Of a stretch of 64,000 bases of DNA, positions 2,065 through 58,257 are shown piece after piece. The first letter of the stretch is position 1. Every line of letters begins with the position of its first letter. Below the pieces are notes generated by a model. That model searched no databases, was not told where the DNA came from, and saw nothing but the letters and a program-made list of their open reading frames with translations. The stretch lies in the sequence record MF044457; one strand, written 5' to 3'. A program made the position numbers and the translations under genes. The stretch is from Escherichia phage ST0.

Positions 2065-3390
2065 ATGCAATTGAATTCTCGTAATCTAAAAAGTATTATT
2101 GATAACGAAGCCTTAGCATATGCGATGTACACCGTTGAAAACCGTGCAATCCCAAACATGATTGATGGATTTAAGCCGGTTCAACGTTTTGTGGTTCATC
2201 GTGCGTTAGATTTGGCTCGTGGTAATAAAGAAAAATTTCATAAACTTGCGTCAATTGCAGGAGGTGTTGCAGATTTAGGTTATCATCATGGCGAATCTTC
2301 TGCACAAGATGCAGGTGCATTGATGGCTAACACATGGAACAACAACTATCCGTTGTTAGATGGCCAAGGCAACTTTGGTTCTAGAACAGTCCAAAAAGCT
2401 GCAGCATCTCGTTATATTTTTGCTCGTGTAAGTAAAAATTTCTATAACGTATATAAAGATACTGAATATGCTCCAGCTCATGAAGATAAAGAACACATTC
2501 CGCCAAAATTCTATCTTCCTATTATTCCGACAGTTCTTTTGAATGGCGTCTCCGGTATTGCAACCGGTTACGCAACAAATATTCTGCCTCATAGTTTTAA
2601 ATCAGTCAAAAAGGCTGTATTACAAGCTCTTCAAGGTAAAAATGTCACTAAGCCAAAAGTTGAATTCCCGGAATTCCGTGGTGAAGTACATGAAGTTGAT
2701 GGGCGTTATGAGATTCACGGAACATATAAGTTCACATCTCGCACTCAAATGCAGATAACTGAAATCCCATATAAATTCGACCGTGAAACGTATGTGAGTA
2801 AGGTTCTTGACCCGTTGGAAGACAAAGGTCTAATCTCATGGGAAGATGATTGTGGTGAACACGGCTTTGGGTTTAAGGTGAAGTTCCGTAAAGAGTACTC
2901 GCTTCCTGATGATGAAGAGCTACGTCATGAAAAAATCATGAAAGATTTTAGTCTCATCGAACGTCGTTCACAAAACATCACAGTGATTAATGAAAAGGGT
3001 AAATTAGCAGTCTACGATAACGTAGTGGACTTAATCAAAGATTTTGTTGAAGTCCGTAAGACTTACGTTCAGAAACGTATTGACAACAAAATCCTTGAAT
3101 CTGAAAAAGCGTTTAAACTTGCTTTTGCTAAGGCACACTTCATCAAAAAAGTTATTACAGGTGAAATTGTGATTCAGGGCAAGACTCGTAAAGCTTTGAC
3201 TGAAGAGCTAGCACAAATCGAAATGTATAAAGAACATGTCGATAAACTGGTAGGTCTTAACATCTTCCATATCACTTCCGACGAAGCACGTAAACTGGCA
3301 GAAGAAGCTAAAGCTAAGAAAGAAGAAAATGAGTATTGGAAGTCTACCGATGTTGTGACAGAGTACACTAAAGACTTGGAGGCACTTTGA
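2065..3390 (+). CDS. 52: DNA topoisomerase II medium subunit gp52
   Basis: 441 aa; recalled T4 gp52 similarity throughout, length matches T4 (442 aa). Confidence 0.95.
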   Translation: MQLNSRNLKSIIDNEALAYAMYTVENRAIPNMIDGFKPVQRFVVHRALDLARGNKEKFHKLASIAGGVADLGYHHGESSAQDAGALMANTWNNNYPLLDGQGNFGSRTVQKAAASRYIFARVSKNFYNVYKDTEYAPAHEDKEHIPPKFYLPIIPTVLLNGVSGIATGYATNILPHSFKSVKKAVLQALQGKNVTKPKVEFPEFRGEVHEVDGRYEIHGTYKFTSRTQMQITEIPYKFDRETYVSKVLDPLEDKGLISWEDDCGEHGFGFKVKFRKEYSLPDDEELRHEKIMKDFSLIERRSQNITVINEKGKLAVYDNVVDLIKDFVEVRKTYVQKRIDNKILESEKAFKLAFAKAHFIKKVITGEIVIQGKTRKALTEELAQIEMYKEHVDKLVGLNIFHITSDEARKLAEEAKAKKEENEYWKSTDVVTEYTKDLEAL

Positions 3391-3466
3391 GTGCCCTAGC
3401 CTTAGGATTTCTCGGTGCAATAGCTGCACTAGTGATTTGGCTGTATTGGTTGGACAAACATGATTA

Positions 3467-3487
3467 GGGAGCTTCGGCTCCCTTTTG
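3467..3487 (+). terminator. rho-independent terminator
   Basis: GGGAGC-TTCG-GCTCCC hairpin followed by TTTT. Confidence 0.7.
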
Positions 3488-3507
3488 TGCATTTTTCTCG
3501 CAAAACA

Positions 3508-3536
3508 GTTTACATGTGCTTCAAACATGATATTAT
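3508..3536 (+). promoter_or_regulatory. early promoter (GTTTAC, 17-nt spacer, TATTAT)
   Basis: GTTTAC at 3508-3513, TATTAT at 3531-3536; the roughly 70-bp promoter-to-ATG cassette is nearly identical to the one at 3829-3897. Confidence 0.65.
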
Positions 3537-3575
3537 AGACCTATCAAAACAAAACAACCAAATTGGAGAAATAAA

Positions 3576-3791
3576 ATGTCTAAAATGAAATTAACCCAAA
3601 ACACAACTACTCGTTTTGGTAAAGTTAAACCTGGTATGAATGCTCCCCGTAAAGCACTTGTTGAAGAATTAAATTTCTTAGAAGTTGAAATCAATTCTTT
3701 AGTGGTTCGCGGTTCAAATGGTCATCATTTAGAAAAGCTTCGTTCTAAAAAGGCAAAACTTATTGGCCTTATTAAAGAAATGAGTTTGTAA
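3576..3791 (+). CDS. hypothetical basic protein (71 aa)
   Basis: ORF with SD GGAGAA and upstream early promoter. Confidence 0.5.
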   Translation: MSKMKLTQNTTTRFGKVKPGMNAPRKALVEELNFLEVEINSLVVRGSNGHHLEKLRSKKAKLIGLIKEMSL

Positions 3792-3828
3792 ATTTTACCA
3801 GGGCTTTTGAAAAAGAGCCCAAAATAAA

Positions 3829-3857
3829 GTTTACTTTTGCTTCAAACATGATATTAT
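3829..3857 (+). promoter_or_regulatory. early promoter (GTTTAC, 17-nt spacer, TATTAT) upstream of motA
   Basis: GTTTAC 3829-3834, TATTAT 3852-3857; near-duplicate of the 3508 cassette; preceded by hairpin GGGCTTTT...AAGAGCCC at 3801-3820. Confidence 0.65.
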
Positions 3858-3894
3858 AGACCTATCAAAACAAATACTAATTTGGAGAAATAAA

Positions 3895-4527
3895 ATGTCT
3901 AAAGTTACTTACATCATCAAAGCTTCTGAAAACGCTCTGAATGAAAAAACTGCTGCAATAATGGTTTATATCATTAAGAACAACTTCACCACTGCTGCCA
4001 ATGTCCGTGAAGCTCTGGAAGCGGAATACAATGCATCGGTTGTTAACTCTAACATTGGTGTATTGATTAAGAAAGGTTTAGTCGAAAAATCTGGTGATGG
4101 ACTTATAGCAACAGGCGAAGCAATGGATATTATCCAAAAAGCTGCAGACCTCTTTGCCCAAGAAAATGCTCCAGAACTTCTTCAGAAACGTAACACTAGA
4201 AAAGCACGTGGAGTTACTCCTGAAATGCATGAATTAGCAAACTTTGTTTTTGAAAATATTAAAGATAAAGTTGAAGTTAAAGAAATTGGTGAAAACCGTA
4301 GTAACTTGGAAGTTCGATTTGCAAAACGAGTTCTAGGTATTCGTCAGATCGAAATTCGTCGAAATGGTTCTCTTAGAATCTTTGCATACAACATGTCAGA
4401 AACCGAATCAAAGCTGTTTACTTCTCTTGAAAATGATGTTAAGATTAAGATCGGTGGTAAATATACTTACATTGACTTCCCTAATGTGTCCAAAGAAATC
4501 ATTACCCTTGTAACTAACGTACTGTGA
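3895..4527 (+). CDS. motA: middle-transcription activator MotA
   Basis: 210 aa; recalled T4 MotA similarity (MSKVTYIIKAS...NSNIGVLIKKGLVEKSGDGLI...AQENAPELL). Confidence 0.93.
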   Translation: MSKVTYIIKASENALNEKTAAIMVYIIKNNFTTAANVREALEAEYNASVVNSNIGVLIKKGLVEKSGDGLIATGEAMDIIQKAADLFAQENAPELLQKRNTRKARGVTPEMHELANFVFENIKDKVEVKEIGENRSNLEVRFAKRVLGIRQIEIRRNGSLRIFAYNMSETESKLFTSLENDVKIKIGGKYTYIDFPNVSKEIITLVTNVL

Positions 4528-4537
4528 GGAATACATA

Positions 4538-4882
4538 ATGAATAAGCTGAATATTATTAACGAACTTCGTAAATGTGCAGAACCTACTCAGGAAGGATGG
4601 GATATTTGGTACCACGGGGCTTATCTTGGAACTATAGTTAAAGTTAAAGCTGGGTTATATTTAATTATTCGCGAAAATTCTGAATTCCCTAATGGAGTAG
4701 CTCCTGGCGGTATACGTAAAAACTTTATGGCAGCGATCAGTTCATTTGTTGATGCCGCTTACGAAATCTATAAAGAAGATTATAAAGAATATCAGCAGTC
4801 ACAACCGGTTATTCGTTCGATTGGTGTAAATAAACAAGCACAAAAATCTATTTGGCAACGTATTAAGGAATGGTTTAAATGA
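4538..4882 (+). CDS. hypothetical protein (114 aa)
   Basis: ORF with SD; accessory island between motA and asiA. Confidence 0.5.
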
Positions 4883-5340
4883 AATCATTTAAAGAACGTT
4901 TAGAGCTATTAGATTTGGCCTTGTCTCGTGAGACTCCTGAAAGTCTAGCAGAAAAATTCCAGTCCTACGGTTATAATTATTCTGCTGATGATATAATGAA
5001 TGAAGTTCCTGAAATCTGTTGGCAAACGTGCTATTGGAATAATGACCAAAAAGTTCAACGTGTTATAGTATGTGCAGCTAATAGGTTTAAATTGAAGAGT
5101 GGTGGAACTCTGGTTATTCCTGGAGTTCGTCATTACTCTAAAGATATGGCTGAAGTACTTGATATAGTTGGTCCTCAATTAGTCTCGCAACAAGTTTGTG
5201 GTGACGACCAAGGCTTTATCGACCAATACTCTAATTACTGGACTCGTGAAGAAGCAATGATTATTGCAACGTATGCTGGACAGGCACGTATTGAACGTGG
5301 CGGAAGTGAGAAAGAACTTTATTCAGAGGACCTTTATTAA
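4879..5340 (+). CDS. hypothetical protein (153 aa)
   Basis: ORF with ATGA start/stop overlap with the upstream ORF. Confidence 0.5.
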
Positions 5341-5621
5341 TGAATATTAAACAACTCCAGAAAGATGCTATTGAATCACGTATCCAAGATATCAAACGTC
5401 TTAATCATATGATGGAAGAAAACTATGGTATGTATGCTAATCAGCCTGGTTGGGACGCTTTAGACCATCCTTATTTGGTTAATTTATGTAAAGGTGATAC
5501 GTTAGCAATTATTCGTGATGGGTTAAAACCTTTCTTGCGTGACATGTATATTAAAATGAACGAAGAAATTATTAGCTCGTTGCAATATCAATTAAGGAAA
5601 TTAGATGATAAGAATAATTGA
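5340..5621 (+). CDS. hypothetical protein (93 aa)
   Basis: ORF with TAATG overlap; position and size are compatible with an arn-type gene but I do not recognise the sequence. Confidence 0.45.
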   Translation: MNIKQLQKDAIESRIQDIKRLNHMMEENYGMYANQPGWDALDHPYLVNLCKGDTLAIIRDGLKPFLRDMYIKMNEEIISSLQYQLRKLDDKNN

Positions 5622-5823
5622 TTCTAAAGTAGATTATTTTAATTCTGTTAATGATAAGAATAAAGCTTTAATTCGCCACTTTATTACTGAGATGGGATAT
5701 ACTGACTCTAAAGATTTGAAAGAGCACATTATCGAATGTTCTGTGGCTAAAAAGTTTTCTTTTACCGATAAATGTTTAAATGAGGTTATAAATCATTATG
5801 AACAATCTTGTAGCAAAACATGA
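5605..5823 (+). CDS. hypothetical protein (72 aa)
   Basis: ORF in the same island. Confidence 0.4.
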   Translation: MIRIIDSKVDYFNSVNDKNKALIRHFITEMGYTDSKDLKEHIIECSVAKKFSFTDKCLNEVINHYEQSCSKT

Positions 5824-6676: not shown

Positions 6677-7336
6677 TTATTTAGCCCTTCCTAGTATTCG
6701 GACCGCTTGGTTGCATATAGCCGCTAAGCGGTCTTCCTCAAGTATATTACTCCCCTTATACCAATACATCGTCACAGTTCCGGCATAGATGTTATCCAAA
6801 TTAAAGTATGGACAACTATACATATAAGAAAGTTCGGCAGTCTTAGATTTTGTAGGCAAAAATGCAAATTCTGATTTAGATGAGAAATGACGGCCACTTA
6901 AATGAATTATATATTCATTGGCCGTTTTATCCACCGGGAATCCGCCAAGGGACTTTTCAGAAATTGTGCTAGGTAGTTTGCCTTCATAAGCTATAAGGTC
7001 GACGAAATAATTTAAGTTTTTAGGTCTGAAAGAATACACAGCACTAAAATCCGCACCAGATGAGATATGAACTATTTGCAGTTGTTCTAGAGCCGCAGAT
7101 TCAAAACGTAAAGCTCGTTCTTTTTGGATTATTTCAGTATAAGTATCATACTTAGCTCTTACATAATAATCCAGCAAAATACTTCCTTTGTACCATATTA
7201 GTGCCATTAGGAACAAAAGAATAATTACCGCTACTCGGGACATTAAAACCTTTCCAGTAGCGTTATCTTTGAAAATACGATCTAGCAACCCAAATAGAAT
7301 ATCACTAAGTGAAAATGATACTTTTGGTGTTGCCAT
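6677..7336 (-). CDS. t: holin T
   Basis: 219 aa; recalled T4 holin similarity (FSAVYSFRPKNLNYFVD.IAYEGKLPSTISEKSLGG.PVDKT, YMYSCPYFNLDNIYAGT.TMYW), N-terminal transmembrane segment. Confidence 0.95.
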   Translation of the reverse strand: MATPKVSFSLSDILFGLLDRIFKDNATGKVLMSRVAVIILLFLMALIWYKGSILLDYYVRAKYDTYTEIIQKERALRFESAALEQLQIVHISSGADFSAVYSFRPKNLNYFVDLIAYEGKLPSTISEKSLGGFPVDKTANEYIIHLSGRHFSSKSEFAFLPTKSKTAELSYMYSCPYFNLDNIYAGTVTMYWYKGSNILEEDRLAAICNQAVRILGRAK

Positions 7337-7345
7337 AATACCTCC

Positions 7346-7897
7346 TTACTTAAAGATATTTATAATCGCTTTGACAATAGATTTGTTTTCAAGGTCAGGG
7401 AATTTAGGGAATTCACCGCCAAGATGTTCATGCTTTTCTAAAAGGGCAAAGAATTTTTTGAGCTCTTTATATTTTCGTTTTTCTTCTCTATTAGCAACCT
7501 CTGCGTCAATAAGAGAATTTAAAACACTGAATAATTTATAGAGTTCATGAATTTTCTTATCACGTTGAACTACGCGTTTATATGCTTCATCTTCCTTCCA
7601 CCCGTCGCCGGTCCAAATGTCAAATTCACCAGGTTCTTCTGTAGTAACATTTTGAAGAGCACCTGGTGTGTCAATAACAATTTTTTGCTTATCATAAGTC
7701 CATACTGTTTTTCCACGATGGTCTTCAACATATACCCATTCTTGCTCGCGTTCGTCAAATATAACAGCATAGCCTTCTTTAGGGTCTAAAGGTTTTTTTG
7801 GTGTCGAATGAGCCGGAAATCCTACGCCTTTTAATGGTTTATAATTTTCTTCTTTGTAAAATTCTTTAGTGTCAAAATAATAGTGATAGAGTTTCAT
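7346..7897 (-). CDS. 38: gp38, T4-type tail-fibre assembly chaperone (183 aa)
   Basis: Recalled T4 gp38 similarity (M.YHYYFDTKEFYKEENYKP...EKHEHLGGEFP); length is that of the T4 chaperone form, not the longer T2-type adhesin. Confidence 0.9.
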   Translation of the reverse strand: MKLYHYYFDTKEFYKEENYKPLKGVGFPAHSTPKKPLDPKEGYAVIFDEREQEWVYVEDHRGKTVWTYDKQKIVIDTPGALQNVTTEEPGEFDIWTGDGWKEDEAYKRVVQRDKKIHELYKLFSVLNSLIDAEVANREEKRKYKELKKFFALLEKHEHLGGEFPKFPDLENKSIVKAIINIFK

Positions 7898-7926
7898 ATT
7901 ATAAAAGGGACAGAAGTCCCTTCTCC

Positions 7927-10900
7927 TTATGCTAAACGAACGATATAGTTAAAAGCAACGTTTTTAACTGTGTTTTCTGTATTACCTGTACTATTTACAG
8001 TGATAGTATGACCGTGCGAACCAATAGCTACTGAATGAGTGTGAGCGCCAATACCTACGGTGTGAGTATGAGCGCCAATACCTACCGTATGCGCATGGTT
8101 GCCTGTGGTGCTAGTAGTACCAGACCAACTATGGGTGTGGGCACCATCATTTGATGTTTTACCGACCTTAGTTGCTAAAGTCGAACCAGTGATACCTGAG
8201 TTAAGTTTAGCGTATGCGTTTGCACTTATCGTAGTAACCCCGTCTCTAAACAAATCGTCTGCCCATGCAGCAGTGACCTGTGGACCTGAACGCGTGTGTT
8301 GGTGAGCACCAGCGGAACTAGTATTACCACTCACTGTATGGCTATGGTTGCCAGTGGTATTACTGGTCTTAGTACCATAATCAAAGCTTGAAGTCGTTTT
8401 GCTACCGTAATCAAAACTTGACGTATTTTTAGTACCCAAATCTGTGTTTGATGCACTTGCACTATGGCTATGTGACTTAACACCGTCTGCTTCTGTACTT
8501 AATACAGCACGACCAGATGGTTTACCCTTGATAGTTTGACCACGCATATCAGGCAGAGTGCCGGAAGGATACACTGCAGCTAACTTAGGATACAAGCCAG
8601 CATCAAATGTTTGACCTTCCATTATGGCATAGCCTTCAGGAGGTGTATCAGTAGGCCAAGGAATCGGAGCACCAATCGGGTAACTCGAGACAATATCCGT
8701 CTTAAGGTTATTTATTGTGGTATTCAAGTTAGCAAAATTACCAGAACCACCAGTGATATTACCATCAGTACCAATACGAACATTACCAGCGCCTAATTTA
8801 CCAGGAGAATAAAAATCACCGTTTTTATTAAATTCCCATCCAAGATCCTTTATAACAGCACCAGTAGAAACGCCGTCACCACCTTCGTGATAATGAACTC
8901 TAAAGTTACCACCATTAATTAAAGTACCAATAGAATAGCAACTATTATTTTGAACGTATCTTTGTTTCACAATAGGAACATAAGTGCTTGTATCGGTTCT
9001 ATCTATATTCATGTAGAACGGAGCACGAACGTTTTCATTATTTTGTGAAGCAAAAGAACCAGCTCCAGCAGGTCGTGCAGTATCAGTACATTCAGCGTCG
9101 ATATATGCCGATTGTCCTAATTGCATACGGTAATTAGGAGAAATGCGACTATGGCTAGTTATAACAACAAGTTTATTATCATTATCAACGGTCACCATAT
9201 TACCGCCAGCACCGTCATCACCTAACGTAACAGAATGGCGCATTTGAACCATACCATTATTAAGACTAATACTTAGTGGACGGAGATTACTTATTCCACC
9301 ACTTTCACCTGCATCTTTAAGTGTAGGTATAATATGCAAAGACGCTTCAGAACGACGGAAAATAGCTCCATATTCAGCATTGTAAATACGGAAAGCATCT
9401 GCGGTATTACCGATTTTAACTTGACCGGTAATAGAACCGCCACCGGATAAAACAAGCCCGTTATCCATAGTAACTTGTCCGGATAATGCACTTAATCCAT
9501 TAACTCTAAGACTTCCATCGGTGATAATGCTCCCTCTAGCATTAACTTGTCCATTGAACTGGGTTACAACAGGTCCCACAGTTTCTGAATCGGTTGGAGC
9601 TATGCGCTGAGAATAAAAATAATATCCCTGCCCGTCAGCTACTTCAAAAACTGTTTCACGAGTACGATCGCCGGATGCGTTAAATGAATTACCCCATGCT
9701 TTAACAGTTACGTAGCTTTTATTCTGCCCAGCACGAGTACCACCTTCCCACAAAATTTGCTTAGTGCCATCAACTGTAGTAGTTGGAGCGAATGTTAGCC
9801 CGGCAGTAGAATTATTAGCTGCTAAATATACACCATTATATATTGAAAGCTGCTTAGTGGATGTAATACCGCCATCAGCATAAAACATCACATTATTTGC
9901 ACCGGTTACCAATTTCAAAATACCCGGGTTAATTTCCATACCTTGTTGGGTATTGATATTCATCTGACCTGTACCACGGAAATAATGGGAAAATTTACCG
10001 CCAGAATTATATCCAATGTGGGTTTGACCATCACCTGCATTGTTTGTATCAGCCTGGGTTTGAACCGATAAAAGCGCGGCGTTGGTTCCAGGCATTGTCC
10101 AGGTTCCGCCTTGGTCTTCTGAGCGTCCAAATAATGCTTTACGAGTACTACGGAAACTATCAGGAGTAATAGAAGCAACAGAATTCCAATTACCTACTAA
10201 ATCATAAACGCCTTGCTTAATATATTTTAAACCAGTTGCAGCATCGCCCAAAGCAATATATCTTTCTCCCATTGGAGTAGGAGAGCCATAGTTGTTAGTA
10301 TTTTCGTCAGCAGTAATTGTGCCAATAGCAAGTGAACGACGTAATACCATTGCGCCATCATTACGAAGACCCATTAATTTAGTAGTAAGTGTATTTCCGG
10401 TCCACCAAGAAATTTCATCGTTCTTACCAGTTTGAGCTGAAGCGATTTCATGGTAAATAGTTCCGCCTGATTTAGCTCGAACTTTACGAAGATAGTTTAT
10501 ACCATTTTCTTCACCTGTTCCAGGATAAACATATTGAACTAATGATTGTGAATCATATTGTCCGAATGCCTTTGTATCTAAAATAATATTTTTAGTATTA
10601 ATCTGAGGTGAAGTAATATTTCCGAGAGCTGCAATATTTCCAGATGTAGTTATACTACCTCCTGATACTGCTAAACCTCCGCCGTCAACAGTAAATCCGC
10701 CGTCGCGTCGAAACGTCCAATATTTCGAATCGCCAGATTCATTGATATAATGAATCTTCAACGAACCTTCAGAAACTAAAGTACCTAATGAAAAAGTTCC
10801 ATCTTTAAAGCGTTGTTTAATTATAGGATTATATTCCGAAGTAGCGGTTGATGCGGAAATATCCATGAAAATAGGGGCTTTTGCCGTGTGTTGACCTGCC

Positions 10901-19211: not shown

Positions 19212-19240
19212 GCTTTATTTCTTGTGTGTTAAAATTACTT

Positions 19241-19333
19241 TATAAATAAATCATACCAGCTACGAGGTATAAGTGTCGTAGCAACCAACTGTAAGTAAAT
19301 AAATTAAATAATCTAAATAAAAGGTAATAATCC
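19241..19333 (+). promoter_or_regulatory. gene 32 late promoter plus autoregulatory translational operator (pseudoknot and AU-rich tract)
   Basis: TATAAATA at 19241-19248; stem GCTACGA/TCGTAGC at 19259-19282 followed by repeated TAAAT/AAATTAAATAA units to the start codon, as in the known T4 gene 32 operator. Confidence 0.65.
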
Positions 19334-20818: not shown

Positions 20819-21067
20819 ATGAGATTGCAACGCCAGAGCATCAAAGATTCGGAAGTTAGAGGTAAATGGTACTTCAACATCGTCGGTAAAGACGCTGAAC
20901 TCCTTGAACAAGCTGAAGAAGCTTTACGAGAAATGGGTTGGAACGAAGAATGTGATGGATGTCCACTCTACGAAGATGGTGAAAGTGCAGGATTCTGGAT
21001 TTATCATTCTGACGTCGATCAGTTTAAAGCTGATTGGAAAGTTGTTAAGAAAAATCTGAGGAAATAA
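20819..21067 (+). CDS. hypothetical protein (82 aa)
   Basis: ORF with SD; frd.x-type position. Confidence 0.5.
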   Translation: MRLQRQSIKDSEVRGKWYFNIVGKDAELLEQAEEALREMGWNEECDGCPLYEDGESAGFWIYHSDVDQFKADWKVVKKNLRK

Positions 21068-21069
21068 TT

Positions 21070-21318
21070 ATGAATGTTGTTGTTGAATACTCTCAAGGCG
21101 CTGATGTCGGATATGAAGTTTATACTTCAGTTAATTTAGACCATCCGGATTTGGCCGAATTCATTGGCGACGCATTTGATTTGTCTGGGCGATACACAAC
21201 AAAACCTCGCGTTTGTGTTATAACATTTGACCCGACCGACGGCTGTCAAATCCAGACTGATTTGGTTTCTTCTAAATCACAAATCCAAAAAGTTATTAAA
21301 GGACTTAAAAATGCTTAA
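21070..21318 (+). CDS. hypothetical protein (82 aa)
   Basis: ORF tightly packed between neighbours. Confidence 0.5.
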   Translation: MNVVVEYSQGADVGYEVYTSVNLDHPDLAEFIGDAFDLSGRYTTKPRVCVITFDPTDGCQIQTDLVSSKSQIQKVIKGLKNA

Positions 21319-21898
21319 ATTAGTATTCGCATGTGCTCCGACTAAAACAGTTGATGATAAGCTGGAATATGCTTTTGGATTAGGTGATATGCTTCCATGG
21401 AAGCATATCAAACAAGATATGAGTAACTTTGTTGCTCGCACTAAAAACACTGTAATGGTTATGGGTGCTAAGACTTTTGCATCATTACCTCGTCTACTCC
21501 CAGACCGTACTCATGTGGTTGTCACTGATATGGCCAGAAAACTGCCTAGGACTAAAACTGATGAACTTGCACGGTTCTATATCACCCAATCTGAATTTAT
21601 TACCTTGGTAACAGGTGGTGAAATTAACCTGTTTAGCCATGCAACTGACGTACCGTTTAAACTTTCTACTGAACATGTTGATGTCTCGGTTATTGGTGGT
21701 CCTGCTTTATTAAAACAAGCACTGCCTTATGCCGATGAAATCGTGATGACTAAAATCATTAAGAAATGTCGTGTTAATTCCGATGTTCAACTTGATAAAG
21801 ATTTCGTCCAAGATATTATGCTTCAACGTTCTATGGTAGAATCTCATTACTACAGAATCGATGAACTCACCGAAATTACTGAGAGCGTTTATAAATGA
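21311..21898 (+). CDS. frd: dihydrofolate reductase
   Basis: Start at the internal ATG (MLKLVFA...); recalled T4 Frd similarity (FGLGD.LPW, IMVMGAKTF.SLP.LLP.R.H.VV, SVIGGPALL..ALPYADE). Confidence 0.92.
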   Translation: MLKLVFACAPTKTVDDKLEYAFGLGDMLPWKHIKQDMSNFVARTKNTVMVMGAKTFASLPRLLPDRTHVVVTDMARKLPRTKTDELARFYITQSEFITLVTGGEINLFSHATDVPFKLSTEHVDVSVIGGPALLKQALPYADEIVMTKIIKKCRVNSDVQLDKDFVQDIMLQRSMVESHYYRIDELTEITESVYK

Positions 21899-22755
21899 AA
21901 CAATACCAATACCTGATTAAAGATATCTTAGAAAATGGCTACGAAACAGACGACCGTACAGGTACCGGCACTATTGCCCTGTTCGGAACTAAATTGCGAT
22001 GGGATCTGACTAAAGGATTCCCTGCGGTAACAACTAAGAAATTAGCATGGAAAGCTTGTATTGCCGAGTTACTGTGGTTCATGTCTGGTTCTACCAATGT
22101 TAATGATTTGCGTATTCGTACTCATGGTAGTCTTATTCAAGGTAAAACTATTTGGGACGACAACTATGAAAATCAGGCAAAAGACCTTGGGTATCATAGC
22201 GGCGAACTTGGTCCTATTTATGGTAAGCAATGGCGTGATTTTGGTGGTGTAGACCAATTAGTTGAAACAATCGACCGTATTAAAAAATTACCAACTGATC
22301 GTCGTCAAATTGTTTCTGCCTGGAATCCAGCTGAAATAAATCAAATGGCTCTTCCTCCTTGCCATATGTTCTATCAGTTCAATGTGCGTAATGGTCATCT
22401 TGATTTACAATGGTATCAACGCAGTGTAGATGTTTTCTTGGGTCTGCCGTTCAACATTGCCTCGTACGCTGCCTTGACGCATATTGTAGCGAAGATGTGT
22501 AACCTTATCCCAGGTGATTTAGTGTTCTCAGGCGGCAACACGCATATCTACAGCAATCATGTAGAACAATGCAAAGAAGTTCTTCGTCGTGAACCTAAAG
22601 AGTTATGTTCTCTTGAAATTAATTGGCCTAGTAATTTTGAGAATTGGCCTACAAAAATCCAAATGGACTGGGTTACTGGAACGATGACATATTCTGATTT
22701 CGTTCTTAAAAATTACGAATCACATCCAGCTATCAAAGCTAAAATGGCGGTATAA
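21895..22755 (+). CDS. td: thymidylate synthase, uninterrupted
   Basis: 286 aa continuous ORF with thymidylate synthase motifs (active-site LPPCH, DLGPIYG, QWYQRS.D.FLG.PFNIASYA); no intron insertion. Confidence 0.95.
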   Translation: MKQYQYLIKDILENGYETDDRTGTGTIALFGTKLRWDLTKGFPAVTTKKLAWKACIAELLWFMSGSTNVNDLRIRTHGSLIQGKTIWDDNYENQAKDLGYHSGELGPIYGKQWRDFGGVDQLVETIDRIKKLPTDRRQIVSAWNPAEINQMALPPCHMFYQFNVRNGHLDLQWYQRSVDVFLGLPFNIASYAALTHIVAKMCNLIPGDLVFSGGNTHIYSNHVEQCKEVLRREPKELCSLEINWPSNFENWPTKIQMDWVTGTMTYSDFVLKNYESHPAIKAKMAV

Positions 22756-22756
22756 A

Positions 22757-23011
22757 ATGATTTTACGTTTTATTAATTCATATGGCACCACAATTTTTGA
22801 AATGAAAAATCCTACCGAACTGGATATCCCTTCACCGAATAGTGAAATCACAGTTAAAGGTGAACGATTCATTTGCTATTCACATGAACGAATTTATGAC
22901 TATCGTGAATTTTGTGGTGGTTACGGTATAGAAAAAGAACCGTTGGTTTATTTCGATATCACAGTCTTGACACCTAAAGAATACGAAGAAATTATTGCTG
23001 AGGATAATTAA
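22757..23011 (+). CDS. hypothetical protein (84 aa)
   Basis: ORF with one-nucleotide spacing after td. Confidence 0.45.
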   Translation: MILRFINSYGTTIFEMKNPTELDIPSPNSEITVKGERFICYSHERIYDYREFCGGYGIEKEPLVYFDITVLTPKEYEEIIAEDN

Positions 23012-23019
23012 CGCTTCAG

Positions 23020-23052
23020 TTTAAAAGTGTATAATAAATTAACGGGATAAAT
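23020..23052 (+). promoter_or_regulatory. TATAAT -10 element followed by a stem-loop, upstream of nrdA
   Basis: TATAAT 23020-23025; hairpin ACGGGA...TCCCGT at 23032-23052. Confidence 0.4.
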
Positions 23053-23098
23053 ACTATCCCGTTTGGAGTAATGTCTATCAACCTATACTGAGGACTAT

Positions 23099-25354
23099 AT
23101 GCAAGTAACTAAGAGCAGTGGTGTATCCCAAAATTTTGATGCACAGAAAATTATTCAAGTCTTAACTTGGCAATGTGAAGGAACACAAATTGACCCATAT
23201 GAATTGTACGAAGAAATTAAGACCCATCTTGTTGACGGGATGAGCACCAAAGATATCCAGAAGATTTGTATTAAAGTTGCAGCTAACTCGATTTCTGTCG
23301 AAGAACCTGATTATCAGTATGTCGCCGCCAAAGGGCTAATGTTTGCACTCCGTAAAGATGTATACGGACAGTTTGAACCGCCTGCTTTTATCGACCATAT
23401 TTCTTATTGTGTTAATGAAGGCAAATACGACCCTGAGTTGTTGTCTAGATATTCTGCAGAAGAAATCATTTATCTTGATTCTCAGATTAAACATGAGCGA
23501 GATTTTGACCTGACTTATGCTGGTGCTATGCAGCTTAAAGAAAAATATCTAGTTAAAGATAAAACAACTGGGAAGATTTATGAAACTCCCCAGTTTGCTA
23601 TCATGGCTATTGGCATGGCCTTACATCAAGACGAAACTCATGACCGTTTGAAACATATTATTCGTTTTTATGATGCCGTTTCTACTCATCAAGTTTCATT
23701 GCCTACCCCAATTATGGCAGGTGCTCGTACTCCGACTCGCCAGTTCTCTAGTTGTGTAGTTATTGAAGCAGGTGATTCGTTAAAATCTATTAACAAAACT
23801 TCAGCATCAATTATTGAATATATTTCTAAACGAGCTGGTATCGGTATCAACGTTGGTATGCTTCGTGCAGAAGGTTCTAAGATCGGTATGGGTGAAGTTC
23901 GACATACAGGTGTTATTCCATTCTGGAAACATTTCCAAACTGCAGTAAAATCTTGTTCTCAAGGTGGTATTCGTGGTGGTGCTGCTACAGCGTATTATCC
24001 GATGTGGCACTTAGAAGTAGAGAACCTATTAGTTCTGAAAAATAACAAAGGCGTGGATGAAAACCGTATTCGACATATGGACTACGGAATTCAGATTAAT
24101 GACCTTATGATGGAACGCCTTGGTAAAAATGATTATATTACTTTATTTAGCCCTCACGAAATGTCAGGCGAACTATACTACTCGTTCTTTGAAGATCAAG
24201 ATAAATTCCGTGAGCTTTATGAGAAAGCTGAAAAAGACCCGACAATCAGAAAGAAAAGAATCAAAGCACTAGAACTCTTTGAATTGTTCATGACTGAACG
24301 TTCTGGCACTGCTCGAATTTATCCACAATTCGTTGATAACACGAATAACTACACTCCGTTTATTCGCGAAAAAGCTCCAATTCGTCAGAGTAACTTATGT
24401 TGTGAAATCGCTATTCCGACTAATGACGTGAATGGTCCTGATGCTGAAATTGGTTTATGCACATTATCTGCTTTTGTATTAGATAAATTTGATTGGCAAG
24501 ACCAAGATAAAATTAATGAACTTGCTGAAGTACAAGTACGTGCACTTGATAACCTGTTAGACTATCAAGATTATCCGGTTCCAGAAGCTTTAAAAGCTAA
24601 AAAGCGACGTAACTTGGGTATTGGTGTTACGAACTATGCCGCATGGTTAGCTTCTAACTTTGCTTCATATGAAGACGCTAACGATTTGACTCATGAATTG
24701 TTTGAGAGATTGCAATATGGCCTTATCAAAGCTTCAATCAAACTCGCCAAAGAAAAAGGACCTTGTGAGTATTATTCAGACACTAAATGGTCTAGAGGCG
24801 AATTACCTATCGACTGGTACAATAAAAAGATTGACCAAATCGCAGCCCCGAACTACGTCTGTGACTGGGAAGAACTTCGAGCTGAACTCAAAGAACATGG
24901 AATTCGTAACTCAACGTTGTCTGCACTCATGCCTTGTGAGTCAAGCAGTCAAGTATCGAACTCTACAAACGGTATCGAACCTCCGCGCGGTCCAGTAAGT
25001 ATTAAAGAATCTAAAGAAGGCAACTTCCGTCAGGTTGTTCCTAATATAGAACATAACATGGGTCTTTATGACTACGCGTGGAAACTTGCTAAGAAAGGTA
25101 ATAAACCTTATTTGACCCAAGTTGCTATCATGTTGAAATGGGTGTGCCAATCTGCTTCTGCTAATACTTACTATGACCCTGCAGTATTTGAGAAAGGTAA
25201 AGTGCCAATGTCAGTAATGCTTGACGATCTGCTTTACTTCTGGTACTTTGGCGGAAAAAACCTCTACTATCATAACACTCGTGATGGGTCAGGTACAGAT
25301 GACTATGAATTAGAAACACCTAAAGCTGAAGATTGTTCTGCTTGTAAGCTTTAA
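23099..25354 (+). CDS. nrdA: aerobic ribonucleoside-diphosphate reductase large subunit
   Basis: 751 aa; class Ia RNR motifs (catalytic NLCCEI region, C-terminal Cys pair in ...EDCSACKL). Confidence 0.95.
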   Translation: MQVTKSSGVSQNFDAQKIIQVLTWQCEGTQIDPYELYEEIKTHLVDGMSTKDIQKICIKVAANSISVEEPDYQYVAAKGLMFALRKDVYGQFEPPAFIDHISYCVNEGKYDPELLSRYSAEEIIYLDSQIKHERDFDLTYAGAMQLKEKYLVKDKTTGKIYETPQFAIMAIGMALHQDETHDRLKHIIRFYDAVSTHQVSLPTPIMAGARTPTRQFSSCVVIEAGDSLKSINKTSASIIEYISKRAGIGINVGMLRAEGSKIGMGEVRHTGVIPFWKHFQTAVKSCSQGGIRGGAATAYYPMWHLEVENLLVLKNNKGVDENRIRHMDYGIQINDLMMERLGKNDYITLFSPHEMSGELYYSFFEDQDKFRELYEKAEKDPTIRKKRIKALELFELFMTERSGTARIYPQFVDNTNNYTPFIREKAPIRQSNLCCEIAIPTNDVNGPDAEIGLCTLSAFVLDKFDWQDQDKINELAEVQVRALDNLLDYQDYPVPEALKAKKRRNLGIGVTNYAAWLASNFASYEDANDLTHELFERLQYGLIKASIKLAKEKGPCEYYSDTKWSRGELPIDWYNKKIDQIAAPNYVCDWEELRAELKEHGIRNSTLSALMPCESSSQVSNSTNGIEPPRGPVSIKESKEGNFRQVVPNIEHNMGLYDYAWKLAKKGNKPYLTQVAIMLKWVCQSASANTYYDPAVFEKGKVPMSVMLDDLLYFWYFGGKNLYYHNTRDGSGTDDYELETPKAEDCSACKL

Positions 25355-25407
25355 GACTTTTTATTATAATTTACTCATGGATGAGTTAAACTAAGTGAGA
25401 AAATATA

Positions 25408-26586
25408 ATGAGTACAGTTTTTAACACACAACAAGTCGATGTTTTGAATGAACCGATGTTCTTTGGTTCTGGTCTTGGTATTGCGCGTTATGATATTCAA
25501 CGCCATAAAGTTTTTGAAGATTTGACCGAAAAGCAATTATCATTTTTTTGGCGCCCAGAAGAGGTAAACTTGATGTTGGACTCTGCGCAGTTCAATAAGC
25601 TTCCTCAGTTCCAACAGGACATCTTTACAAACAATCTTAAGTATCAATCATTATTAGATTCTATCCAAGGCAGGGCCCCGTCTGCGGTACTTATGGCACT
25701 GATTTCTGACCCTTCATTAGATACATGGGTTGCAACATGGACATTCAGTGAAACTATTCACTCTCGTTCGTATACTCATATTATGCGAAATCTTTATACT
25801 GATCCATCCAAAGTATTTGATGAGATTGTATTAGACGAAGCAATCATGAAACGAGCTGAATCAATAGGTAAATATTACGATGATGTTCTGGTTAAAACTC
25901 GTTATTGGGAAAACGCTAAAGCTGATATCGAATACCAAAAAGAAATTAATGCAGACGAAGACGTTATTGAAGATGCTATTGAGCATGAGACATATTGGAA
26001 GCGTGAGCTAATGAAATCTCTTTATCTCTGTTTGCATGTTATCAACGCCTTAGAAGCTATTCGTTTTTACGTATCATTTGCATGTACCTTTAACTTCCAT
26101 AAAAACATGGAAATTATGGAAGGTAATGCAAAGATTATGAAGTTCATTGCTCGTGACGAACAACTCCACCTCAAGGGTACTCAGTACATTATCCGTCAAC
26201 TTCAATCTGGTACTGATGGTGATGAGTGGGTTCAAATTGCTAAAGAATGTGAACAGGAAGCAGTTGACATTTTTATGGAAGTAAATAGACAAGAGAAGGA
26301 ATGGGCTGCACATCTCTTTAAAGACGGTACATGCCCAGGTATCAATACACAGAGTATGTGTGCTTTTGTTGATTACTTGACTGTGTCTCGTATGAAACAG
26401 TGTGGTTTGCCATGTCCAATTACTGATGCTCCTACAAAGCATCCGTATCCTTGGATTCGTGAATATCTGAACTCTGATTTAGTTCAAGCAGCTCCTCAGG
26501 AAGTTGAAATCAGTTCTTATCTTGTCGCACAAATTGATAATGATGTAGACCAAAATGTAATCAATTCATACAAAAAATATTTCTAA
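25408..26586 (+). CDS. nrdB: ribonucleoside-diphosphate reductase small subunit, uninterrupted
   Basis: 392 aa continuous ORF with ferritin-like di-iron/tyrosyl radical protein features; no intron. Confidence 0.93.
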   Translation: MSTVFNTQQVDVLNEPMFFGSGLGIARYDIQRHKVFEDLTEKQLSFFWRPEEVNLMLDSAQFNKLPQFQQDIFTNNLKYQSLLDSIQGRAPSAVLMALISDPSLDTWVATWTFSETIHSRSYTHIMRNLYTDPSKVFDEIVLDEAIMKRAESIGKYYDDVLVKTRYWENAKADIEYQKEINADEDVIEDAIEHETYWKRELMKSLYLCLHVINALEAIRFYVSFACTFNFHKNMEIMEGNAKIMKFIARDEQLHLKGTQYIIRQLQSGTDGDEWVQIAKECEQEAVDIFMEVNRQEKEWAAHLFKDGTCPGINTQSMCAFVDYLTVSRMKQCGLPCPITDAPTKHPYPWIREYLNSDLVQAAPQEVEISSYLVAQIDNDVDQNVINSYKKYF

Positions 26587-26612
26587 GGACGGGACTTCGG
26601 TCCCACTTTATT

Positions 26613-27023
26613 ATGAAAGATATTGCCGCCGAATATTCCTTTATTAAATATACAGAATTGGAGCTATTAGAAGATGCAACAATTAAAACAGTTGATGTCC
26701 CTAATAAGAAAAATGTCATATACGCTATTGCTATAGATGACGAACTTGTGTATATTGGTAAAACCAAGAATTTAAAGAAACGCATTAACTATTATCGAAC
26801 AGCCATAAATCGAAAAGACCAGACTTCAGATTCAAGAAAATCTCTTATGATTTTGGATGCCTTAATGCAAGGCAAAAAGGTTGAATTCTGGGCCCGCCAA
26901 TGTTTTGACCTTTCAGTCACCAACGAACTTGGTTCAATGACCATCGCAACAATGGACCTTGAAGAACCGCTTTTTATCAAAAAGTTCAACCCGCCTTGGA
27001 ATATCCAACATAAGAAAAAGTAG
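26613..27023 (+). CDS. denA: endonuclease II (GIY-YIG family)
   Basis: 136 aa exactly as in T4; GIY-YIG-type motifs (VIYAIAIDDELVYIGKTKNL.KRINYYR); recalled T4 DenA similarity. Confidence 0.93.
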   Translation: MKDIAAEYSFIKYTELELLEDATIKTVDVPNKKNVIYAIAIDDELVYIGKTKNLKKRINYYRTAINRKDQTSDSRKSLMILDALMQGKKVEFWARQCFDLSVTNELGSMTIATMDLEEPLFIKKFNPPWNIQHKKK

Positions 27024-27052
27024 TTTACATACCACAAGGATTGTGGTACAAT
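27023..27052 (+). promoter_or_regulatory. early promoter with dyad symmetry upstream of rnlA
   Basis: GTTTAC 27023-27028, TACAAT -10, inverted repeat CCACAA/TTGTGG in the spacer. Confidence 0.5.
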
Positions 27053-27070
27053 TTAAAAAAAACTAACTGA

Positions 27071-28204
<1,134 letters not shown>

Positions 28205-32154: not shown

Positions 32155-33147
32155 ATGTTACCTGTCATCAGAAAACTTATTTCTCCAAAAGAACTGGCTG
32201 AGATTATTCCTTTGTCGGAAGCTTACGCATCACAAGTGGCTTCTCATCGCGAACAAGTTAATTCGATTATGAACGGTGAAGACCCACGCAAACTTATTGT
32301 TGTAGGTCCTTGTTCAATTCATGACCCTATTGCTGCTGTTGAATACGGCAAACGTCTGGCTGAACTTCAAACTCGTCTTCCTAATGTTCTGTTAGTGATG
32401 CGCGTTTATTTTGAAAAGCCTCGAACTACCGTAGGTTGGAAAGGTCTTGTAAATGATCCATATCTTGACGGAAGTTTTGATATGAACCACGGTCTTATAG
32501 TTGCACGAACATTGTGTCGTAAACTTCTACGTATGGGACTTCCATTAGCAACTGAAGTATTAGACCCATTCACGATTAAGTATCTTTCTGGTATTTTCTC
32601 ATGGGTTGCTATTGGCGCCCGTACGACTGAAAGTCAGACACATCGTGAAATTGCTTCAGGTCTACCGATGTGCGTAGGCTTCAAGAACGCAACCAATGGT
32701 TCTATTAAAGTAGCTACAGACGCGATGTATAGTGCCGCCTGGCCTCATCGGTATATGGGTATGGACGTCGATGGTACTGTAGGCATTGTTGAAGCTGAAG
32801 GTAATCAGAATACGCATATCGTATTGCGTGGCGGGACTAACGGCCCGAACTATCATTCTTCTGATATTCAAGAAGCTTCTAACAAAGCAAGTGCATTAGG
32901 TCTGAATCATTATGTAATGGTTGACTGTAGCCATGCAAACGCTGATGGGTATTATAGCAATCAAATTGGTATTGGTAAAAATTTAGCAGCTAATGATTTG
33001 GTCAAAGGAATTATGATAGAATCATTCCTACATGAAGGAAATCAAAAAATTTCTGATAATATGTCCTATGGCGTTTCCGTTACCGATGCGTGCATCAGTT
33101 GGGAACAAACTAAAGAGCTGTTAACTTATATTAATAAGGTTCAATAA
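32155..33147 (+). CDS. 3-deoxy-D-arabino-heptulosonate-7-phosphate (DAHP) synthase, class I (AroF/AroG/AroH family)
   Basis: 330 aa; conserved blocks VVGPCSIHDP, MRVYFEKPRTTVGWKGL.NDP, GARTTESQ.HRE.ASGL, VGFKN, HI.LRGG, DCSHAN, S.TDACI.W; SD AAGGA upstream; phage-like AT-rich codon usage. Confidence 0.88.
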   Translation: MLPVIRKLISPKELAEIIPLSEAYASQVASHREQVNSIMNGEDPRKLIVVGPCSIHDPIAAVEYGKRLAELQTRLPNVLLVMRVYFEKPRTTVGWKGLVNDPYLDGSFDMNHGLIVARTLCRKLLRMGLPLATEVLDPFTIKYLSGIFSWVAIGARTTESQTHREIASGLPMCVGFKNATNGSIKVATDAMYSAAWPHRYMGMDVDGTVGIVEAEGNQNTHIVLRGGTNGPNYHSSDIQEASNKASALGLNHYVMVDCSHANADGYYSNQIGIGKNLAANDLVKGIMIESFLHEGNQKISDNMSYGVSVTDACISWEQTKELLTYINKVQ

Positions 33148-36975: not shown

Positions 36976-37177
36976 ATTAATCCAGAAATTGTTAGGCACG
37001 GAAATGGTCGAAGTTACTTATCGTGTGACTGACTGCTCGCCTATTCATCCACAGGATGAACCGTATATCAAGACAATTAAAATGCTTAAAAATGACGGTG
37101 GTTTATCCATTGAAGACCGTCTGCCTAGTTACGGTCATTGGGCTGATGTTGAAATTATAAGTGTTAAAGATGTCTGA
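36965..37177 (+). CDS. hypothetical protein (70 aa)
   Basis: Short ORF overlapping its neighbours. Confidence 0.4.
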   Translation: MLNKLIQKLLGTEMVEVTYRVTDCSPIHPQDEPYIKTIKMLKNDGGLSIEDRLPSYGHWADVEIISVKDV

Positions 37178-53002: not shown

Positions 53003-53031
53003 GTCAAATTACCATGTAATAAATATAGTTA

Positions 53032-53039
53032 TATTTATA
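53032..53039 (-). promoter_or_regulatory. late promoter (TATAAATA) for uvsW
   Basis: Plus-strand TATTTATA 30 nt upstream of the uvsW start. Confidence 0.6.
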
Positions 53040-53052
53040 ATGAGGAAATATT

Positions 53053-56529: not shown

Positions 56530-56552
56530 GGGACCGTAAGGTCCCTTTTTTT
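56530..56552. terminator. bidirectional terminator between convergent rnlB and gene 24
   Basis: GGGACC-GTAA-GGTCCC hairpin flanked by an A-run upstream and a T-run downstream. Confidence 0.75.
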
Positions 56553-57834: not shown

Positions 57835-57861
57835 TGCATTTTTTCCTTATGTGATATAGAT

Positions 57862-57869
57862 TATTTATA
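57862..57869 (-). promoter_or_regulatory. late promoter (TATAAATA) for gene 24
   Basis: Plus-strand TATTTATA 28 nt upstream of the gene 24 start. Confidence 0.6.
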
Positions 57870-57875
57870 AAGATT

Positions 57876-57905
57876 GTTTACAACGTATTTGGTATGTGAT
57901 ACTAT
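57876..57905 (+). promoter_or_regulatory. early promoter (GTTTAC, 18 nt, TACTAT)
   Basis: Consensus elements upstream of the ORF at 57936. Confidence 0.5.
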
Positions 57906-57935
57906 AGACTTATCAACTACAGAGGAGTAAACAAA

Positions 57936-58205
57936 ATGACTAAAGCACGTTTCTTACGAGATACTTTAAAAGTTCTAGAAGCTGAAGCGGTTAAGTTAGT
58001 AGAAAAATATGGTGCAAAAGTTAATGGTAATGCCTTCAACAAAGTATGGATGAAAGTTGATTCTGAAGCTCGAGCTAAAGGTTATTGGGCCACTGATAAA
58101 CTTGCATCATTCAAAAACAAAGACGGTTCTCCGGCATATGTCCAAGAAGGTATGCCTAATTGGCAAAATATTTTGAAAACTTACATCGAAATTGCACAGA
58201 AATAA
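57936..58205 (+). CDS. hypothetical protein (89 aa) between genes 24 and 23
   Basis: ORF with SD GAGGAG. Confidence 0.5.
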   Translation: MTKARFLRDTLKVLEAEAVKLVEKYGAKVNGNAFNKVWMKVDSEARAKGYWATDKLASFKNKDGSPAYVQEGMPNWQNILKTYIEIAQK

Positions 58206-58214
58206 AACCAAAAA

Positions 58215-58234
58215 TGGGAGACCGAAGTCTCCCA
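58215..58234. terminator. terminator hairpin downstream of gene 23 (minus strand)
   Basis: TGGGAGAC-CGAA-GTCTCCCA stem with T-run on the minus-strand side. Confidence 0.65.
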
Positions 58235-58257
58235 AAATAAGATTTAATCAATTAAGA

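Follow-up and report, generated by a model that had tools for sequence, protein, structure and literature searches.

The window analysed here, a 64-kb stretch of DNA, comes from a Mosigvirus, an RB69/JS09-type relative of T4, with 97.8% identity to Mosigvirus PNJ-9 over 6.1 kb. Position 21895 opens the td start codon and position 26586 closes the nrdB stop codon, within a cluster that extends from frd to denA (Table 1). The Mosigviruses PNJ-9, JS09, RB69, and phi25-307 share this gene order, with 95–98% nucleotide identity across frd–denA, and their td, nrdA, and nrdB genes are continuous like those of the window. Among the matches listed, no record was identical to the window. Its local alleles form a mosaic, with a td junction nearest to that of phi25-307 (99.3%, among the matches listed).

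Table 1. Genes, empty insertion positions, and other features of the frd–denA region, in window coordinates.
Feature	Position	Strand	Description	Basis
frd	21311..21898	+	Dihydrofolate reductase, 195 aa from ATG	Pfam DHFR_1, E 3e-21; PNJ-9 and T4 frd in the same place
td	21895..22755	+	Thymidylate synthase (TS), 286 aa, uninterrupted	Pfam Thymidylat_synt, E 5e-98
Empty td intron site	22417..22455	+	With I-TevI-type target (-27 to +12)	Insertion point 22443|22444
Small ORF	22757..23011	+	84 aa, DUF5496 / phrog_2458, not an endonuclease	Pfam DUF5496, E 9e-13; PHROG 2458
Empty HNH gene site	23064..23119	+	Just upstream of nrdA; free-standing 211-aa HNH gene in SSE1 and NRG-P0074	blastn
nrdA	23099..25354	+	RNR large subunit, 751 aa, uninterrupted, without intein	Pfam ATP-cone, Ribonuc_red_lgN, Ribonuc_red_lgC
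Empty HNH gene site in nrdA	~24434..24444	+	236-aa HNH gene of ZQ3, splitting nrdA in two	blastn, 24433/24445 vs ZQ3 locus 3934/4850
nrdA–nrdB spacer	25355..25407	+	53 nt; mobE and nrdB.1 here in T4	T4 annotation, window sequence
nrdB	25408..26586	+	RNR small subunit, 392 aa, uninterrupted	Pfam Ribonuc_red_sm
Hypervariable nrdB cassette	25918..26025	+	aa ~171–206	Alleles compared among relatives
Empty nrdB intron point	26083..26084	+	TTTGCAT|GTACC, within the Cys codon of FAC	Exon junctions of T4, 348Ecol098PP, and NRG-P0074
denA	26613..27023	+	Endonuclease II (EndoII), 136 aa, GIY-YIG	Pfam GIY-YIG, E 2.5e-6; phmmer, E 1.6e-74 to T4 DenA

Continuous genes and empty insertion positions

An earlier note on this DNA had described td and nrdB as single uninterrupted ORFs and the region as free of introns and homing-endonuclease genes (HEGs), and both the state and the gene identifications proved correct by alignment, Pfam, and Rfam with a positive control. 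Each of the three genes td, nrdA, and nrdB is one ORF, collinear with the spliced T4 protein and covered by Pfam from end to end. Thymidylate synthase matches its family (PF00303) through residues 2–286 at profile positions 1–266 of 266, and global alignment with the spliced T4 protein (286 aa in both) gave 237 identical residues. NrdA is recognisable as a class Ia RNR alpha subunit (PF02867) by its ATP-cone, all-alpha, and barrel domains, with 655 residues identical between the 751 aa of the window and the 754 aa of T4 (global alignment). NrdB is a class Ia RNR beta subunit by its Ribonuc_red_sm match (PF00268), aligns to E. coli R2 over residues 3–388 (E 2e-127), and shares 339 residues with spliced T4 NrdB (392 vs 388 aa, global alignment). 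Gaps between neighbouring genes measure 1 nt (td to the ORF at 22757), 87 nt (23012–23098), 53 nt (25355–25407), and 26 nt (26587–26612), so that no space is left for a gene between neighbours; at only 53 nt, the nrdA–nrdB gap has no room for Hef.

Five empty sites were placed at or near nucleotide resolution by alignment with T4 and four near-identical insertion-bearing relatives. Alignment of td and nrdB to the T4 exons, a check proposed in the earlier note, located the two intron sites at 22443|22444 and 26083|26084. For td, the breakpoints that blastn gave with T4 and with two intron-bearing Mosigviruses coincided at 22443|22444, and the exon-1 equivalent is 549 nt long, as in T4. The I-TevI cleavage motif CAACG is retained at 22417–22421 (-27 to -23 from the insertion point), and 33 of the 39 bases of the T4 I-TevI target are identical in the window, with three of the six substitutions lying consecutively in the spacer that adjoins CAACG; the conserved segment reads TTCTTGGGT|CT.CCGTT. 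As sequence, the window td thus has what an I-TevI homing site requires, a CNNNG 23/25 nt upstream and a binding region (PMC5009752, PMC2988022).

At the nrdB point, T4, 348Ecol098PP, and NRG-P0074 carry introns of 598, 1091, and 1090 nt, respectively. Of the 20 bases upstream of it in the window, 17 agree with the joined exons of T4 nrdB; the window departs from these at -14 (C in the window, T in T4), -8, and -2. According to PMC1865063, RB3-type I-TevIII cuts 14 and 16 bp upstream of this insertion point. Polymorphism between the window and both T4 and some relatives is also seen where MobE nicks (nrdB nt 114–131). Upstream of nrdA, SSE1 locus positions 2564/3246 correspond to window positions 23063/23120, with 681 nt between them in SSE1 vs 56 nt in the window, and a hairpin (~23041–23063) directly precedes this empty site. 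The ZQ3-type site within nrdA (aa ~445–449) is located just 3' of the stretch that encodes the conserved NLCCE motif (aa 432–436).

The hypervariable cassette inside nrdB, 58–165 nt upstream of the intron site, was present as five different alleles in seven near relatives, and the region is length-polymorphic across 39 T4-like NrdBs. Its counterpart in E. coli R2 (residues ~170–190) is gapped in the alignment and poorly conserved. The window has the allele of ZQ3 and 348Ecol098PP, while those of PNJ-9 and SSE1 differ; in NRG-P0074, a tract unlike the otherwise identical ZQ3 takes in the cassette together with the intron site.

Searches for intron RNA and homing endonucleases

Intron RNA was sought with Rfam in 'evalue' mode, using the known T4 introns as positive control, and these were recovered at 40.3 bits (td, E 9e-8) and 35.7 bits (nrdB, E 2e-6). 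In this mode the group I intron family (RF00028) had no match in 21000–27200 at E<=10, nor across the whole window at E<=0.1. The window td and nrdB do not belong among group I intron-bearing genes, their ORFs running straight through both insertion points. A null result at the Rfam gathering threshold was discarded as evidence, as that mode also misses the known introns of T4 and 348Ecol098PP. A mir-1 hairpin match at 26071–26138, found on both strands (E ~0.3), is insignificant and reflects a 9-bp inverted repeat in coding sequence that also occurs in T4; this repeat lies just 3' of the nrdB site.

For endonucleases, all six-frame ORFs of at least 40 aa in the window were searched by phmmer with 13 queries (T4 I-TevI, I-TevIII, MobE, SegD, SegE, SegG, and DenA, plus six endonucleases of Mosigvirus relatives) and by hmmsearch with two profiles built from query subsets. 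Pfam and PHROGs were further applied to 20 otherwise unassigned ORFs, and Pfam to 27 small ORFs, other large ORFs being assigned from T4 gene order. The earlier note had seen no homing-endonuclease ORF between frd and denA and had suggested extending the search for seg/mob genes; Pfam, phmmer, and hmmsearch found only the non-homing DenA in the region, and no homing-endonuclease domain was detected by these tools and PHROGs in the full 64 kb. For a negative observation such as this, chance is not at issue.

With the GIY-YIG queries (I-TevI of T4 and Mosigvirus, SegD, SegE, SegG, and the profile), the best match was DenA itself (E 0.04), which was also the only GIY-YIG protein in the Pfam scans of the scanned ORFs; a 43-aa ORF at 37029–37157, the one other match in a GIY-YIG motif scan, looks like chance. 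With the HNH queries (MobE, three I-TevIII versions, the ZQ3, SSE1, and NRG HNH proteins, and the profile), the best match (E 0.007) was judged to be chance, and no HNH family appeared in Pfam scans of window ORFs. The I-TevIII/HNH matches in question (56681–57433, + strand, E 0.007–0.08) are short fragments, the best of them 43 aa, antisense within gene 24 (56551–57834, minus strand). DenA is identical to T4 DenA at 107 of 136 positions and is flanked by nrdB on one side and RNA ligase 1 (rnlA) on the other, as expected of this family. Judged from its sequence, the sole GIY-YIG protein of the window is thus the ortholog of T4 endonuclease II and no homing endonuclease.

Occupied and empty alleles in T4-related phages

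T4 has orthologous genes in the same order, and its introns are inserted at codons matching the empty points of the window (td following nt 549, nrdB at the FAC Cys). Unlike in the window, however, the T4 annotation places a ~1016-nt intron with I-TevI in td and a 598-nt intron with a relic of I-TevIII in nrdB, along with mobE and nrdB.1; the syntenic 64 kb of T4 also includes segG, segD, and segE, all three absent from the window. T2 resembles the window, from its description, in that nrdB is intronless and the nrdA–nrdB interval is free of endonuclease genes. When T4 and T2 are crossed, gene conversion transfers mobE and the nrdB intron to the T2-type allele (PMC2790892). The window belongs to another genus than T2, and at many third codon positions its sequence in the MobE target region is not that of T4.

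Closer comparisons come from 348Ecol098PP and NRG-P0074, two Mosigviruses with a backbone 95–96% identical to the window. In contrast to it, both have their td interrupted by a 1016-nt intron that encodes a 245-aa I-TevI homologue, and their nrdB by a 1090/1091-nt intron whose I-TevIII-type ORF is full-length (229–269 aa). In NRG-P0074 the HNH gene ahead of nrdA, again missing from the window, is present as well, and the td exon flanks of this phage differ from those of the window at 2 of 90 bases around the site. Copies sharing at least 99% identity with the nrdB intron of 348Ecol098PP occur in 44 records, one or more of Tequatrovirus included, and T4-like co-conversion tracts flank the nrdB site in the intron-bearing Mosigviruses. 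No such tracts were found in their td exons; a recent import of the td intron from T4 was ruled out, because these exons are Mosigvirus-type throughout and the intron is only ~90% identical to that of T4. Homing into the Mosigvirus lineage has occurred, judging from these intron-bearing relatives and the nrdB tracts.

Taken together, the region is very probably the standard frd–td–nrdA–nrdB–denA nucleotide-metabolism operon of an RB69/JS09-type Mosigvirus in an uninvaded state, with td, nrdA, and nrdB continuous and all five T4/Mosigvirus insertion positions empty, and with td and nrdB probably still presenting their targets. No observation spoke against this anatomy.

The variable presence of td and nrdB introns and of seg/mob genes in T-even-type phages was already recognised in the late 1980s. 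In the records searched, the td intron was found in ~260 records vs 1269 with a td match, leaving ~80% of phage td records without it, and the nrdB intron in ~129 vs 1537 (~92% without it), all approximate counts because redundant records and distant td/nrdB matches are among them. These intron counts were taken with intron sequences as queries, since junction searches merge short nrdB introns into one place. Within the 40 closest relatives, both introns were present in five rows. Table 5 of PMC2993671 gives RB69 as free of HEGs, and T4 has been described as an outlier among its relatives for these elements (PMC2993671; PMC2988022). The intron-free, HEG-free td/nrdA/nrdB region is thus the usual, documented state for such phages, with T4 the exception, and the notability that the earlier note implied for it does not hold up. 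While the finding is minor alone, it provides a clean intron-minus, HEG-minus recipient for crosses with intron-bearing Mosigviruses, in which homing and co-conversion within the genus could be measured.

Susceptibility to homing and origin of the empty state

The earlier note had proposed that this phage could act as a recipient of intron homing, which is plausible from the sequence: CAACG is kept at td, the NRG-P0074 flanks are near identical, and relatives have nrdB co-conversion tracts. TS and RNR would be made without splicing. The td and nrdB alleles would still be open to cleavage by the intron endonucleases of relatives in the same infected cell, and the intron would be copied in as the break is repaired from the donor genome.

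Alternatively, the alleles could be intron-minus but resistant, synonymous target changes or donor exclusion blocking cleavage or repair so that the phage is no practical recipient. The six differences in the I-TevI target, with three in a row beside CAACG, would fit this reading, as would the C for T at nrdB -14, an I-TevIII cut position (PMC1865063), and the MobE nick region, polymorphic vs T4 and some relatives (PMC2790892). RB69-type phages are also reported to exclude T4, without recombination between them (PMC2993671). However, the native CAACG is intact and I-TevI tolerates many substitutions if C1 and G5 of CNNNG are kept (PMC5009752), intron-bearing Mosigviruses have nearly the same td flanks (2/90 differences), and the co-conversion tracts indicate that homing has worked in this genus. 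We consider resistance rather unlikely.

The empty state could also be secondary, an ancestor with introns or HEGs having lost them precisely, e.g. by recombination with an intronless relative or spliced cDNA. Loss once fixed is predicted by the homing-endonuclease life cycle (PMC5009752), some records have shortened td introns without an endonuclease ORF (e.g. ESh30, 32% coverage), and T4 I-TevIII is itself a relic. Against this, the window flanks at both sites are of ordinary Mosigvirus type, as in the intronless PNJ-9, ZQ3, and SSE1, with no donor-like tract, most of the 40 closest relatives are intronless, and RB69 is without HEGs (PMC2993671), which makes secondary loss very unlikely. It is barely credible that a remnant of an intron or endonuclease, cryptic and highly degenerate, escaped detection: default scans are weak, the Rfam gathering threshold missing even the T4 introns, but the sensitive mode that recovers these finds nothing in the window, the proteins run collinear to those of T4 and E. 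coli with no extra segment, the sole length-variable part of NrdB (aa ~171–206) is in frame and aligns to the gapped, poorly conserved E. coli R2 stretch, and intergenic gaps are <=87 nt.

Beyond the reading of the region as an uninvaded operon, the window might represent the ancestral allele in a genus under current colonisation, in which the NrdB cassette would be shuffled between lineages in endonuclease-driven co-conversion tracts, a scenario that we regard as speculative and unlikely. In 2010, RB69-type phages were described as HEG-free and beyond the range of T-even introns; some Mosigvirus members now carry both td and nrdB introns.

Continuity of td, nrdA, and nrdB and location of the empty insertion sites

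A 6.1-kb query spanning the td-nrdB region matched 847 phage records, the best of which were genomes of Mosigvirus, the RB69/JS09-type relatives of T4 (97.8% identity to PNJ-9, 97.4% to pEK20, and 97.2% to phi25-307). The earlier note had described td and nrdB as uninterrupted, within coordinates that run exactly from the td start to the nrdB stop, and both genes are indeed single ORFs, collinear with the spliced T4 proteins; nrdA is continuous as well. Thymidylate synthase has 286 aa in both phages (237 identical), NrdA 751 aa vs 754 in T4 (655 identical), and NrdB 392 aa vs 388 (339 identical). The td product fits the Pfam thymidylate synthase profile over its entire length (E 5e-98), and NrdA displays the ATP-cone, all-alpha, and barrel domains. 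For NrdB, there is a match to the RNR small-chain profile as well as an alignment with E. coli R2 that covers residues 3-388 (E 2e-127). Intergenic gaps in the td-denA stretch measure 1, 87, 53, and 26 nt, leaving no space for an endonuclease gene between genes.

Empty sites were placed using blastn breakpoints between the window and T4 plus four close relatives carrying insertions (348Ecol098PP, NRG-P0074, SSE1, and ZQ3), and the alignment against T4 located both the td and the nrdB insertion points. At the td site, T4, 348Ecol098PP, and NRG-P0074 carry a ~1016-nt intron with a 245-aa I-TevI-type ORF. At the nrdB site, T4 contains a 598-nt intron with an I-TevIII relic, which the window lacks, while the introns of 348Ecol098PP (1091 nt) and NRG-P0074 (1090 nt) each include a full-length I-TevIII-type ORF. 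In SSE1 and NRG-P0074, a free-standing 211-aa HNH gene takes the place of 23064-23119, and in ZQ3 (2600-5759 of its locus, L004) a 236-aa HNH endonuclease gene breaks nrdA into two ORFs. This last arrangement resembles the split nrdA of Aeromonas phage Aeh1 (PMC3045599), this time in a coliphage.

Genes of the window and positions occupied by introns or endonuclease genes in T4 or close relatives
Feature	Position	Strand	Remark
T4 segG position (59/32)	19212-19333		122-nt gap, empty
59, 32, frd.2, and two small ORFs	5' of frd	+	
frd	21311-21898	+	
td	21895-22755	+	
td intron site	22443/22444		after nt 549 of td, exactly the T4 position
84-aa DUF5496 ORF	22757-23011	+	between td and nrdA
Free-standing HNH gene site	23064-23119		directly 3' of hairpin; empty
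nrdA	23099-25354	+	
nrdA-splitting gene site	~24434-24444		just past codons of conserved NLCCE motif
T4 mobE and nrdB.1 position	25355-25407		53-nt spacer
nrdB	25408-26586	+	
nrdB intron site	26083/26084		TTTGCAT/GTACC (slash, site)
denA	26613-27023	+	
rnlA	27080-28204	+	followed by alc
T4 segE position (uvsW/inh)	53003-53052		50-nt gap, empty
T4 segD position (24/23)	57835-58257		unrelated 89-aa ORF 57936-58205, phrog_6003

Just 3' of the intron site, the nrdB coding sequence displays a 9-bp perfect inverted repeat, CTTCCATAA ... TTATGGAAG (~26096-26124), with a similar 8-bp counterpart in T4, CTTCCATA ... TCATGGAAG. Matches of this repeat to the mir-1 hairpin were non-significant on both strands.

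Searches for homing endonucleases and group I intron RNA across the 64 kb

The search for seg and mob genes covered all 568 six-frame ORFs (each ≥40 aa) from the whole 64 kb, using 13 query proteins (T4 I-TevI, I-TevIII, MobE, SegD, SegE, SegG, and DenA, along with six endonucleases from Mosigvirus relatives) together with a GIY-YIG and an HNH profile, each derived from some of these proteins. DenA was the sole match among the 568 ORFs. Pfam was also run on twenty ORFs without synteny assignment and on 27 small ORFs tested as one set, and PHROGs on nine of the twenty (mostly Pfam-negative) plus the DUF5496 ORF; GIY-YIG, HNH, and LAGLIDADG families were absent from these scans of unassigned and small ORFs. 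Other large ORFs are core T4 genes, judged by order and size. The T4 segG, segE, and segD positions are either empty or hold an unrelated ORF, and the 64 kb therefore includes no homing-endonuclease gene, whereas the syntenic interval of T4, from gene 20 to ndd, holds six such elements, namely segD, segE, the I-TevIII relic, mobE, I-TevI, and segG. DenA itself has a GIY-YIG domain (Pfam) but is an EndoII ortholog (107/136 residues identical to T4 DenA) and not a homing enzyme. Hence, the wording of the earlier note, that no GIY-YIG or HNH homing-endonuclease ORF lies between frd and denA, is accurate.

A default Rfam scan of the window yielded no match and was uninformative, since the T4 and 348Ecol098PP introns were missed by the same scan. 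At the Rfam gathering threshold, the T4 td and nrdB introns and their Mosigvirus counterparts go unreported; they score 36-40 bits, below the cut-off of 50, and their large ORF insertions are the probable cause. The “evalue” mode alone detects these introns, and RF00028 controls in this mode recovered those of T4 at 40.3 bits (td, E 9e-8) and 35.7 bits (nrdB, E 2e-6). With the same settings, RF00028 was found neither in 21000-27200 (E≤10) nor across the whole 64-kb window (E≤0.1).

Between pseT and cd, the window encodes a 330-aa DAHP synthetase I family ORF (32155-33147, + strand; Pfam PF00793, E 2e-74), whereas the T4 interval contains only small cd.x ORFs.

Intron-minus and intron-bearing relatives

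The intron-minus state is ordinary and already documented for RB69-type phages. A 400-nt query over the td site matched 1269 records, 791 of them spanning the site unbroken, with td intron sequence present in about 260; the query over the nrdB site matched 1537 records, with the intron present in about 129. The intron-minus share is thus roughly 80% at td and 92% at nrdB, both figures being approximate owing to redundancy among the records. Of the 40 closest relatives retrieved with the 6.1-kb query, five (H17, H20, H21, H31, and H35) contain both introns. Published counts list no endonuclease genes in RB69 or RB26 and one in T2 (PMC2993671, Table 5), and T4, with 15, is still the outlier (PMC2988022). 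The td genes of ESh30 (ON528740) and N2 (ON645936) align, in two pieces, to no more than 24-32% of the td intron, which points to shortened introns from which the I-TevI ORF has been lost.

Group I introns with full-length I-TevI- and I-TevIII-type ORFs are present in td and nrdB of some Mosigviruses, including 348Ecol098PP (2445-3460 and 7102-8192 of locus L002) and NRG-P0074 (L005). Homing has reached this genus: the 348Ecol098PP nrdB intron has ≥99% identical copies in 44 records, one Tequatrovirus included, and the nrdB site is surrounded by T4-like tracts in 348Ecol098PP and NRG-P0074 while the rest of the gene is Mosigvirus-type. No T4-like tract was seen in td of intron-bearing Mosigviruses, and their td intron is only ~90% identical to that of T4. 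A 2010 review had reported no evidence of these introns spreading beyond the T-even cluster (PMC2993671).

We infer, in agreement with the earlier note, that the phage is a potential recipient of intron homing. I-TevI requires a CNNNG at a fixed distance, with C1 and G5 critical and many other changes tolerated (PMC5009752, PMC2988022); the window keeps the native CAACG at -27..-23 of the td site (22417-22421), and 33/39 target bases are identical to T4. The td exon flanks differ from those of intron-bearing NRG-P0074 at 2/90 bases. At the nrdB site, I-TevIII is described as cleaving at 14 and 16 bp on the upstream side (PMC1865063); here the window departs from T4 at -14, -8, and -2, so that cleavage may or may not occur. 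RB69, however, reportedly excludes T4 and does not recombine with it (PMC2993671), which counts against easy exchange with T4 itself.

A hypervariable cassette in NrdB

A cassette in NrdB (aa ~171-206, 25918-26025), 58-165 nt upstream of the intron site, is wholly different between relatives otherwise ~97% identical, with five distinct alleles in a set of seven near relatives and the remainder of NrdB highly conserved. It is length-polymorphic in 39 T4-like NrdBs, and recognisably related alleles are common to otherwise diverged T4-like genomes. The corresponding part of E. coli R2 (residues ~170-190), probably its surface β-hairpin, is gapped in the alignment and poorly conserved. Between NRG-P0074 and the otherwise identical ZQ3, the differing tract spans cassette and intron site together, a pattern compatible with co-conversion during homing.
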